Sequence record: NC_054924.1
DNA length: 64,000 nt
DNA from: Escherichia phage vB_EcoM_Lutter
Direction: 5' to 3' (one strand)
Shown here: positions 15,661 to 17,300 of the stretch, piece after piece
Layout: each line of letters begins with the position of its first letter
Numbering within the stretch: the stretch's first letter is position 1
Notes under the pieces: generated by a model
Told to the model about the DNA's origin: nothing
Database searches by the model: none
The model's input: the letters and a program-made list of their open reading frames with translations, nothing else
Made by a program: the position numbers and the translations under genes

Positions 15661-16440
15661 TTAATTAAAAATATATACTTCATCAGTTCCATTCTTTTCT
15701 TTGGAATGATATATGTTAAAGACGTATTTTTTATTAAGATGCTTAACATTATATTTTTTAGACCATTCTTTAAGAAGAGTGTTTTCCTTTCCGTGATGCT
15801 CTAAAACATTCGACAGCCCAAATTTTATTCCTCTGTCATTTAAAGAATCTAAAAGATTTAAAAGGTCTTTTTCTTCTTCTTCTGACCAAAATTTATTATA
15901 ATCAGCAACTGTTATGAGATACGGAGGATCTACATATACAAAATCGCCGTCTAGAATTTTGACATCTTTAAAATGCAATGAACTAAAGATTATTTTATCA
16001 CAATTTTGCTTAAAGTGATTAAAGCGTTTTTCACTATTTTTGTTTATAGTTCTTTTTCCAAACGGAGTAGTAAAATTTCCTTTATCGTTTATACGAATCA
16101 TATTACTAAATCCATGAAAATGAAGAACATAAAGTAAAAGAGGATCTCTAGTTTTATTATAATCTTCACGTAATTTCAAAAACTCTTCTTTTGATGTTTT
16201 TGATAGTTTGTATTGCTTTATTACTTTTAAAACGTCATCCCATGATACATTAATAAGACGCTTATACATTTCAATAATTGGTTCTTGAATATCATTGGCC
16301 AATACAGGACCATTGACGTTCAAAGACACTGATAAACCTCCACAAAATAAATCCACGAATCTGTCATATTTTGGAAAATGAGGCTTAAGTTCAGGTAATA
16401 ATGATTGTTTATTACCTGTATACGCGATAGCTCCTAGCAT
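15661..16440 (-). CDS. dam: DNA adenine methyltransferase Dam
   Basis: 259-aa ORF with DPPY catalytic motif and FxGxG AdoMet motif (FCGGLS). Confidence 0.9.
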
Positions 16441-17000
16441 TATATTCTCTCATTTATTGCAGCAAAAAACGAATTATATAATTCTTCATCATATGTATTT
16501 GATAGTAATACTAACACGTTTTGTGATTTAGCATATTCATTAAACCTTGCTTGGATAGTTGGATTATCAGTAAATGATTCTCTTTTTGTCCATTTATTAC
16601 GTGGATAATATCCGCATGGCAAAAAATCTAATATCATCAATGACACGGGGTTTTCAGTTTTTGTGTATTCTTTTAATTTCTCTTTATCTTCTAAATATAT
16701 TCCAACCGAATCAATAGCTGTACCTCCACCAACTTGATGTTTAATTTCAATTATATGCTTTTTACCGTTGCGAGAAATAACAATATCAAATCTTCTAGTA
16801 CGCTTCTTAGTTATAAAATTAGAGCAAAACAAATTATTTGATTTTTCAGTATCATCGGTTAAAACCATTTTTTCTTGATAACTAACTGAACAATCAGTGA
16901 AATATTCTTTTACTTTATTAAGTATGAAATTTTCAACTACGGCAGATATTTTATATGAATCTCCGTTTAAAGCCATTTCATGCACAATTTTATTAATCAT
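16440..17000 (-). CDS. hypothetical protein with PD-(D/E)xK-like nuclease signature
   Basis: 186-aa ORF; [20 protein letters not shown] gives D-x12-E-x-K on predicted strands; start codon overlaps the dam stop; own early promoter upstream. Confidence 0.55.
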
Positions 17001-17023
17001 TATATCATCCTCAGCAATTTATT

Positions 17024-17056
17024 TTATAATACCATAACAAGCTGAGAAAGTAAACA
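17024..17056 (-). promoter_or_regulatory. T4-type early promoter
   Basis: GTTTAC, 17 nt, GTATTATAA on minus strand. Confidence 0.55.
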
Positions 17057-17099
17057 AATTTATGAAATTTGTGATAAATATTAATTTAAAGGAGGACAT

Positions 17100-17300
17100 A
17101 TGGTACAAAAATTAATGGCACTTGTTAATGCCATAAAAGGTAATAAAAAACGTATAGCTTTTACTATTTCTGCTATGGTAGGAATTTTACTCTGGAACTT
17201 TATTTTATCACCAATTGCAATTGCGCATGGTGTTAATATTCCAGTAGTTACTCTTGATACATTCGTAGATCTAGCATTTGCTTTAGTTGGGTTAATTTAA
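17100..17300 (+). CDS. small hydrophobic membrane protein candidate (66 aa), plus strand
   Basis: Only plus-strand ORF in an otherwise ORF-free 300-bp interval; AAAGGAGG SD 4 nt before ATG; two predicted TM helices; late-promoter-like GATAAATA upstream. Confidence 0.3.
   Translation: MVQKLMALVNAIKGNKKRIAFTISAMVGILLWNFILSPIAIAHGVNIPVVTLDTFVDLAFALVGLI

Follow-up and report, generated by a model that had tools for sequence, protein, structure and literature searches.

A candidate restriction-modification cassette at the dam locus of T4-like phages, with a very small nuclease-fold protein encoded upstream of the Dam methyltransferase

The Dam enzymes of phages T4 and T2 are textbook DNA methyltransferases, and the GATC specificity of T4 Dam is established. 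What they do for the phage has, to our knowledge, remained obscure, because dam mutants grow normally. We analyzed the dam locus of Escherichia phage vB_EcoM_Lutter within a stretch of 64,000 nucleotides (nt) from sequence record NC_054924.1, termed the window throughout. The window is a segment of a Tequatrovirus genome, whose closest records are slur03, slur08 and slur14 with 99.7% identity over 2.8 kb. The dam gene, here also called the M gene, occupies positions 15661-16440 on the minus strand. Directly upstream of it on the same strand, an open reading frame (ORF) at 16440-17000, the R gene, encodes a protein of 186 amino acids (aa), termed R, which we regard as restriction-endonuclease-like and of the PD-(D/E)xK type on the basis of its predicted fold and conserved residues. 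Together with a promoter in front of R, the two genes make up an accessory cassette of ~1.4 kb on the minus strand, extending approximately over 15641..17073 as judged by comparison with phages AR1 and RB69 and by an insertion/deletion (indel) in Jiaodavirus.

An earlier reading of this DNA, made from the letters alone and referred to below as the sequence-only reading, had already singled out the 186-aa ORF, proposed a nuclease fold and an early promoter of its own for it, and likened its pairing with dam to a restriction-modification (R-M) architecture. The positions that it gave, including those on the plus strand, were all correct. The junction of the two genes was described in reverse: it is the stop codon TAA of R (16442-16440) that overlaps the start codon ATG of dam (16440-16438), as TAATG, and not the start of R that overlaps the stop of dam. 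The product of the M gene is a T4-Dam-type N6-adenine (GATC) DNA methyltransferase, matching PF02086 with an E value of 6.5e-51, sharing 97.7% identity with T4 Dam and containing the DPPY motif. Residues K11, S112, M114, R116, P126 and R130 of T4 Dam, its GATC contacts in the T4 Dam-DNA structures, are conserved in the window Dam.

The promoter-like site assigned to the R-M operon is of the early sigma-70 type and reads (G)TTTACT, a 17-nt spacer and TATTAT preceded by TG (TG-n-TATTAT) at 17054..17026 on the minus strand. A scan with the consensus returned 11 promoter-like sites in the region as compared with 13.8 expected from shuffled sequences; a bare match is thus not above chance. The assignment draws instead on the homologous loci described below. 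Four of the six diverged homologues (L007, L008, KPV15 and L006) have an equal or better promoter of the GTTTAC/TTTACA...TATAAT type at the same position, no clear promoter was found upstream of R in L012, and in L005 the sequence available in front of R amounts to just 68 nt. The record of phage fPS-65 also annotates the R promoter as a predicted early promoter. The early promoter of the sequence-only reading was therefore retained as a site with equivalents in diverged relatives.

The 186-aa protein and its relation to DpnII

R contains the arrangement D72-x12-E85-x-K87 noticed in the sequence-only reading, followed by a further conserved motif after K87. Nine sequences that are 29-63% identical to window R were compared, and E23, D72, E85, K87 and the downstream motif are invariant in them. 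An AlphaFold2 model built on six homologues, with a predicted local distance difference test score (pLDDT) of 80.3 and a predicted template modeling score (pTM) of 0.79, arranges these residues in the element order alpha(E23)-beta-beta(D72)-beta(E85,K87)-alpha-beta-alpha-beta-alpha. E23 lies in helix 15-33, D72 in strand 67-77, and E85 and K87 in strand 80-88. The model thereby contains the alpha-beta-beta-beta-alpha-beta core of the PD-(D/E)xK fold, with an acidic residue in the second strand, the (D/E)xK motif in the third and a glutamate in the helix, all conserved in the homologues. When the model was searched with Foldseek, every match was a PD-(D/E)xK nuclease, and the best ones were orthodox type IIP restriction enzymes. 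The gene is also under purifying selection, with nonsynonymous differences per site (pN) of 0.26-0.40 compared with synonymous differences (pS) of 0.61-0.88 between lineages. Because the model, the fold search, the invariant residues and the selection agree, the predicted PD-(D/E)xK nuclease fold of R, as the sequence-only reading had proposed it, is well supported.

At the sequence level, a search of the PDB with the single R protein and with the nine-sequence profile gave no match at E values up to 10, and an NCBIfam scan gave noise only. Pfam returned sub-threshold matches to DpnII and BanI, and no curated family claims R. R belongs to phrog_8706 of PHROGs, 'unknown function', and public sources all label it hypothetical; in the literature and databases, we found no publication or annotation giving the 186-aa protein a function. 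The GenBank entry for T2 dam from 1988 (M22342) spans the whole R ORF and annotates the methylase alone.

The type IIP enzymes typified by MunI (CAATTG) and EcoRI resemble R in size (~200 aa versus 186 aa) and in having a D-x(n)-E-x-K site, which is D83/E98/K100 in MunI. However, MunI and R share only 12% identity, the MunI recognition site differs, and its methylase is unrelated to Dam. A protein with this fold might also have lost catalysis and serve as a DNA binder that regulates or targets Dam through specificity, processivity or transcriptional control. In favor of this, T4 Dam works without R according to its established biochemistry, and small regulators linked to R-M systems exist in the form of C proteins. 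Yet a degenerate fold would not be expected to keep all four catalytic-type residues invariant, R has no helix-turn-helix, and T2, T4 and other phages have lost or damaged R while keeping an active Dam. We consider an inactive regulator scarcely probable at all.

The best sequence-family signal for R, albeit weak, comes from DpnII, an enzyme with GATC as its cleavage site and with partner methylases of the DpnM/Dam family. The Pfam family DpnII (PF04556) matches window R with 16.8 bits (E 0.0045), short of the gathering cut-off of 23 bits, and it is the best family for four of the nine R family members when matches at E<=1 are considered (best E 8.3e-5), again below the gathering cut-off. By Pfam criteria, R is therefore not a member of the DpnII family. 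The PADLOC profile REase_II also matches R, at E 9.1e-5, in the same region as DpnII. For a direct comparison, we aligned 15 database proteins of the DpnII family; the DpnII sequence with which they were retrieved served as bait only and matched database DpnII at 99-100% identity, and the comparison itself used database sequences only. Aligned with hhalign, R and the DpnII family gave an E value of 5.5e-4 with a probability of only 30%. The pairing is collinear: E23, D72 and E85 of R correspond to the invariant E152, D201 and E214 of DpnII, and K87 corresponds to an invariant Asn. The match spans positions 152-235 of the 278 in the PF04556 profile and, in hhalign, residues 124-226 of DpnII.

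DpnII/MboI-type systems share with the phage locus the pairing of a Dam-family GATC methylase with a PD-(D/E)xK endonuclease, and the motifs RFD[IF]VI, IE[IV] and GG[ST] occur in both DpnII and R. Members of the DpnII family have ~280 aa with an N-terminal helical region, and DpnII itself has ~288 aa, whereas R with its 186 aa is without the N-terminal ~125-140 residues. The active-site motif is ExK in R and an invariant ExN in DpnII. The DpnII system has two methylases, whereas the phage cassette has one, in the gene order R then M; and DpnII is bacterial, whereas the R-dam cassette resides in a virulent phage with hydroxymethylcytosine (hmC) in its DNA. In a model of DpnII (pLDDT 71), the C-terminal half has the secondary-structure order of R. 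The closest structure to this DpnII model is not MunI, so that a specific relationship with DpnII is neither established nor ruled out by the fold search. Taken as sequence comparison, these results make it plausible that R is remotely related to the catalytic half of DpnII, in miniaturised form.

The plasmid-borne relatives of phage Dam were also inspected. The closest of them, at 35-43% identity, are on plasmids of Lactococcus, Staphylococcus and Enterococcus (L015, L018 and L019). They are methylases of AlwI-family (GGATC) type IIS systems, and the idea that DpnII-type systems would be found beside plasmid Dam homologues was dropped. On plasmid pBRAN1 of Campylobacter sp. RM12651 (L021:2436-2984), a hypothetical ORF of 182 aa extends into the start of a gene for a Dam-family methylase, in a layout like that of R and dam. 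It has no detectable homology to R (hhalign probability 4%), and it may be a further small protein whose partnership with a Dam-type methylase has gone unrecognised.

Linkage, decay and mobility of the cassette

A search with a hidden Markov model of the R family against 1.84 billion representative proteins yielded 11 matches, comprising phage-type relatives, fragments, chimeras and one repetitive artefact (P0016); a scan of IMG/VR yielded no additional homologues. In each of the six diverged homologues (KPV15, P0011, P0014, P0002, P0006 and P0009), R lies directly upstream of a D12/Dam methylase gene, and the stop and start codons abut or overlap at all six junctions. The R protein of Klebsiella phage KPV15 (Jiaodavirus) is 43% identical to window R by tblastn and 41% in the protein alignment. 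The linked methylases are T4-Dam orthologues with 53-72% identity to the window Dam; they all keep DPPY and the presumed contact residues, and their divergence tracks that of the nuclease. The linkage of R to a Dam-type methylase is thus strict. An endonuclease gene beside a methyltransferase gene, with a linkage kept in evolution, is what a type II R-M system looks like, and the pairing suggested in the sequence-only reading extends to every diverged homologue.

The pair also decays in one direction. About 507 Tequatrovirus-type records match the region; 182 of them carry dam and 147 of these carry both dam and R, while both genes are absent from roughly two-thirds of the Tequatrovirus records. 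In some 35 records, including those of T4, RB59, PD112 and G8, the match to the dam+R query is confined to bases 1-867. In T4, the alignment places the endpoints of the deletion at two copies of an 8-bp direct repeat, TTTGTGAT, which in the window lie at 16520-16527 (left copy) and 17068-17075 (right copy) on the plus strand. The 548 bp that are removed when the two copies recombine have been lost in T4, taking the promoter and ~158 codons of R with them and leaving the last ~28 codons, in keeping with the remark in the sequence-only reading that T4 has no such gene. Independent lesions in R, each with dam intact, were found elsewhere: KarlGJung has a deletion inside the gene, and the reading frame is shifted in G4500/G29 and, at the C-terminal end, in T2. 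The 153 full-length matches to R consist of the 147 Tequatrovirus records with both genes and six Klebsiella-phage records, among which dam beside R was directly checked in KPV15 only. By the coverage of the records over these 153 matches, no phage with R and without dam was found, whereas M without R occurs.

Laboratory T2 deserves a separate remark. Its R gene (L003:2001-2546) has a 1-nt deletion near the 3' end, by which the last residues become …SFLLQ and the R stop codon is uncoupled from the dam start. This C-terminal change may or may not inactivate the protein.

Loss of R with retention of M, and never the reverse, is the pattern expected of an R-M pair as far as it can be read from the records. 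The pattern therefore suggests that the 'orphan' Dam of T4 is the survivor of a phage-borne R-M pair. The M gene of the window is the same gene as that of the T4 and T2 'orphan' methyltransferases; T2 has the R gene beside dam, whereas in T4 the partner nuclease and the promoter have been deleted, so that the T4 literature treats Dam as solitary. The frequent loss bears as well on the idea that R is a MutH-like, strand-specific nickase acting at hemi- or unmethylated GATC of new phage DNA, with Dam setting the strand mark and the nicks or ends feeding T4-type recombination-dependent replication or repair. A single small domain of the PD-(D/E)xK fold and its tight coupling to Dam would suit such a nickase, as would the general dependence of T4-like phages on recombination-primed replication. 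We nevertheless judge it very improbable, given that R is dispensable, being lost in T4 and missing together with dam from most Tequatrovirus records, and that the cassette holds nothing resembling MutS or MutL.

Three T4-like lineages carry the cassette, each at a different place in the genome. In Tequatrovirus it lies between gene 56 and a small plus-strand ORF of 66 aa; AR1 and RB69 have neither dam nor R, and their gene 56 directly abuts the small ORF. In Jiaodavirus, the cassette is found between an ORF on the denB side and the ndd region as a clean indel of ~1.4 kb, present in 6 of 151 records, and in contig L006 it is directly upstream of rIIA. Because of the clean indel or absence and the three different sites, genome comparison shows the predicted promoter, R and M to move as one piece, as a mobile and dispensable accessory unit. 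In the metagenomic T4-like contig L007, an extra ORF of 93 aa with a weak match to the MazG domain (L007:4010-4291) sits between the small plus-strand ORF and R; the interval therefore accepts other insertions as well.

Such mobility could also be that of a free-standing, selfish homing-type endonuclease, which would cut a specific site in relatives that lack the cassette and spread by double-strand-break repair like the seg and mob genes of T4, with dam as a passenger rather than a protective partner. The clean presence or absence at three intergenic sites would fit, and so would the location in the region where T4 has the homing endonuclease gene segF. Like R, the Seg and Mob endonucleases are encoded by sporadic intergenic accessory genes that vary among close relatives. 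However, their folds are GIY-YIG or HNH and they are not accompanied by a methylase, whereas R is of the PD-(D/E)xK type and always paired with Dam. A passenger would not be expected to stay abutting or overlapping the nuclease stop codon while the homologues diverged to 29% identity and the cassette came to lie at three insertion sites; methylase and nuclease co-diverge, and the best structural matches of R are orthodox type IIP restriction enzymes. We therefore regard a homing endonuclease as distinctly improbable, although this explanation partly overlaps with that of an R-M cassette, which can also spread by cutting rivals.

Considering fold, linkage and decay together, we think with moderate confidence that R and dam probably constitute a compact type II R-M cassette, presumably specific for GATC, with a new, very small family of PD-(D/E)xK endonucleases. 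The alternatives account less well for the obligatory linkage to Dam and for the decay pattern than does an R-M pair.

The 66-aa plus-strand gene and other neighbors

Between R and gene 61, ~300 bp are free of minus-strand ORFs, as the sequence-only reading had remarked; none of at least 30 aa was found in 17001-17296. The plus strand of this interval carries the 66-aa ORF at 17100-17300, which is convergent with gene 61 and overlaps its end by 4 nt. It is preceded by a strong Shine-Dalgarno (SD) sequence, AAAGGAGG, at 17088-17095 and by a late-promoter-like element, GATAAATA, at 17073-17080, with seven of eight matches to the T4 late consensus TATAAATA. Both were correctly recognized in the sequence-only reading. 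The SD and an xATAAATA late-promoter-like element are present at conserved distances upstream of the ORF in T4, T2, AR1 and RB69. Contig L007 has the canonical TATAAATA and L010 a weaker ACTAAATA (6/8).

The sequence-only reading had described the 66-aa ORF together with the nuclease and dam, but the ORF does not belong to this unit. The ORF occurs in 691 phage records, including T4, the cassette-less AR1 and RB69, and other genera. Its RB69 homologue, RB69ORF029w, is 54% identical, and ratios of nonsynonymous to synonymous substitution rates (dN/dS) of 0.11-0.22 indicate purifying selection across genera. Many records annotate it, among them those of RB69 (ORF029w) and AR1 (ar1_033). In the T4 reference, the ORF is intact and no coding sequence is annotated (NC_000866 17738-17938; L002:3239-3439). 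By its conservation, the 66-aa ORF is a real gene of the conserved backbone, and it is independent of the cassette because it is present in phages with neither dam nor R.

Near its N terminus, the encoded protein carries a basic patch, KGNKKR, and a hydropathy profile shows two hydrophobic stretches at about residues 19-40 and 49-66. These would correspond to the two putative transmembrane segments of the sequence-only reading. The protein belongs to phrog_2024, 'unknown function', and has no match in Pfam, NCBIfam or PADLOC. No family library supports the toxin, holin-like or exclusion peptide suggested in the sequence-only reading; membership in a holin or toxin family was rejected, and the gene lies next to those for primase, dCTPase or Dam and not next to lysis genes. 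Our best guess from these features is a small inner-membrane protein that would be expressed late.

The remaining features flank the cassette on either side. Gene 56 (dCTPase; 15082-15615) and soc (14768-15013), both on the minus strand, lie beyond dam. On the other side, gene 61, a backbone gene recognized as DNA primase by its ORF and database matches, occupies 17297-18325 on the minus strand. An intrinsic-terminator-like hairpin with a T-run lies 3' of gene 61 at 17105..17134 on the minus strand, where it coincides with the first codons of the 66-aa ORF on the plus strand; it was found by a scan, and a terminator is annotated in fPS-65. No Rfam match was found within 15000-18500. The homing-endonuclease gene segF is absent between soc and gene 56 in the window (15014-15081) and present there in T4 (L002:1107-1781); T4 thus has segF and has lost the Dam-linked nuclease, whereas the window has the nuclease and no segF. 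Further away, two adjoining minus-strand ORFs of 118 and 210 aa (18494-18850 and 18852-19484) share a C-terminal motif, SIDDQIFNAFMN[RK]G, and look like 61.2-type paralogues by their sequences.

Possible role of the pair in T-even phages

How could such a pair act in a phage that infects a Dam-methylating host? We propose that a single transcript would start at the early promoter, that R would be translated first, and that translation of Dam would be coupled to that of R via the overlapping TAATG. R would be a minimal PD-(D/E)xK enzyme with a MunI/EcoRI-type fold, presumably a homodimer by analogy with MunI, which would cut unmethylated GATC and be blocked by the N6-methyladenine that Dam introduces. 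Dam-methylated DNA would be spared, that is, both the genome of the phage itself and the chromosome of a Dam+ enterobacterial host. The DNA to be cut would be any in the cell with unmethylated GATC, such as that of co-infecting dam-less T-even relatives, other fast-replicating phages, or plasmids. The likeliest benefit would be competition with co-infecting phages, or the selfish upkeep and spread of the cassette. In this scheme, we infer the nuclease activity of R, its GATC specificity, its methyl sensitivity, its dimer state and its biological target.

Several points weigh against an R-M pair. The case for R as a nuclease is made from sequence and predicted structure. With R ahead of M behind an early promoter, the gene order is unusual, since such a system needs protection before cutting. 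The absence of R without M comes from coverage counts rather than from the intactness of dam gene by gene, and the records with M only trace largely to a single deletion event. The Dam+ enterobacterial host chromosome is not an obvious target because the host itself methylates GATC. Self-protection by Dam may be unnecessary, and dam-less T-even rivals may be just as resistant, because the glucosyl-hydroxymethylcytosine (glucosyl-hmC) of T-even DNA blocks ~94% of type II enzymes (PMC7653180).

The frequency of GATC in the genome offers little help. GATC is the most under-represented 4-base palindrome in the window (1-64000), with 70 observed and ~207 expected occurrences, a ratio of observed to expected (O/E) of 0.34. 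In RB69 (L022, 1-50000), which is without the cassette, the O/E of 0.16 indicates even stronger depletion, which is a further point against the R-M interpretation. We therefore rejected GATC depletion as a mark of the cassette: the avoidance belongs to the lineage as a whole and does not depend on whether the cassette is present.

The R-M interpretation also has a more far-reaching version. R might cut glucosyl-hmC DNA at unmethylated GATC, and Dam would protect the carrier. The cassette would then be a weapon of phage against phage as well as an addiction module, destroying or gene-converting dam-less relatives that co-infect the cell. We regard this version as rather unlikely.

The methylated host chromosome also invites the opposite polarity, in which R would be a methylation-dependent nuclease (DpnI-like, type IIM/IV) that cuts GmATC in the host chromosome and so aids host shut-down and nucleotide recycling. 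The phage DNA would be shielded by glucosyl-hmC, and Dam would complete the methylation of hemi- or unmethylated host sites. As the host is Dam+, its chromosome is a substrate for a methyl-dependent enzyme only, and most type II enzymes are blocked on T-even DNA (PMC7653180). The early-type promoter upstream of R would also be appropriate for this task. T-even phages degrade host DNA early, with denA, denB and 46/47. On the other hand, 186 aa are too few for a winged-helix methyl-reader domain, and the weak sequence signal points to DpnII, a methyl-blocked enzyme. The host already supplies Dam, which leaves unexplained why R should be tied to a phage-encoded Dam in all lineages, and the loss of R with retention of M, never the reverse, is what a methylase that protects against R predicts. 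A DpnI-like role appears improbable to us.

Returning to the R-M pair that we favor, virus-encoded combinations of R and M have precedents in R.CviAI/M.CviAI of chlorella virus, which act at GATC with /GATC cleavage and GmATC methylation, and in EcoP1I of phage P1. The nucleases of those viral systems target host DNA without the methylation, whereas the host of vB_EcoM_Lutter is already Dam-methylated.

Most relatives with dam, T2 among them, have it as the second member of a gene pair whose first member encodes a candidate minimal restriction endonuclease. The R-dam unit thereby gives the phage Dam a possible origin and purpose that are concrete and can be tested. At the same locus, a conserved gene for a small, probably membrane-bound protein is missing from the T4 reference annotation. 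If R is active, it would rank among the smallest enzymes of type II and stand for a new sequence family. The cassette would then be a rare example of a complete R-M system in a phage that is strictly virulent and has hypermodified DNA, as well as a candidate tool of phage-phage competition. Should R indeed cut glucosyl-hmC DNA, the Dam of T2 and T4 would gain a biological role, and the cassette would help to explain the avoidance of GATC across T4-like phages, including those without the cassette.

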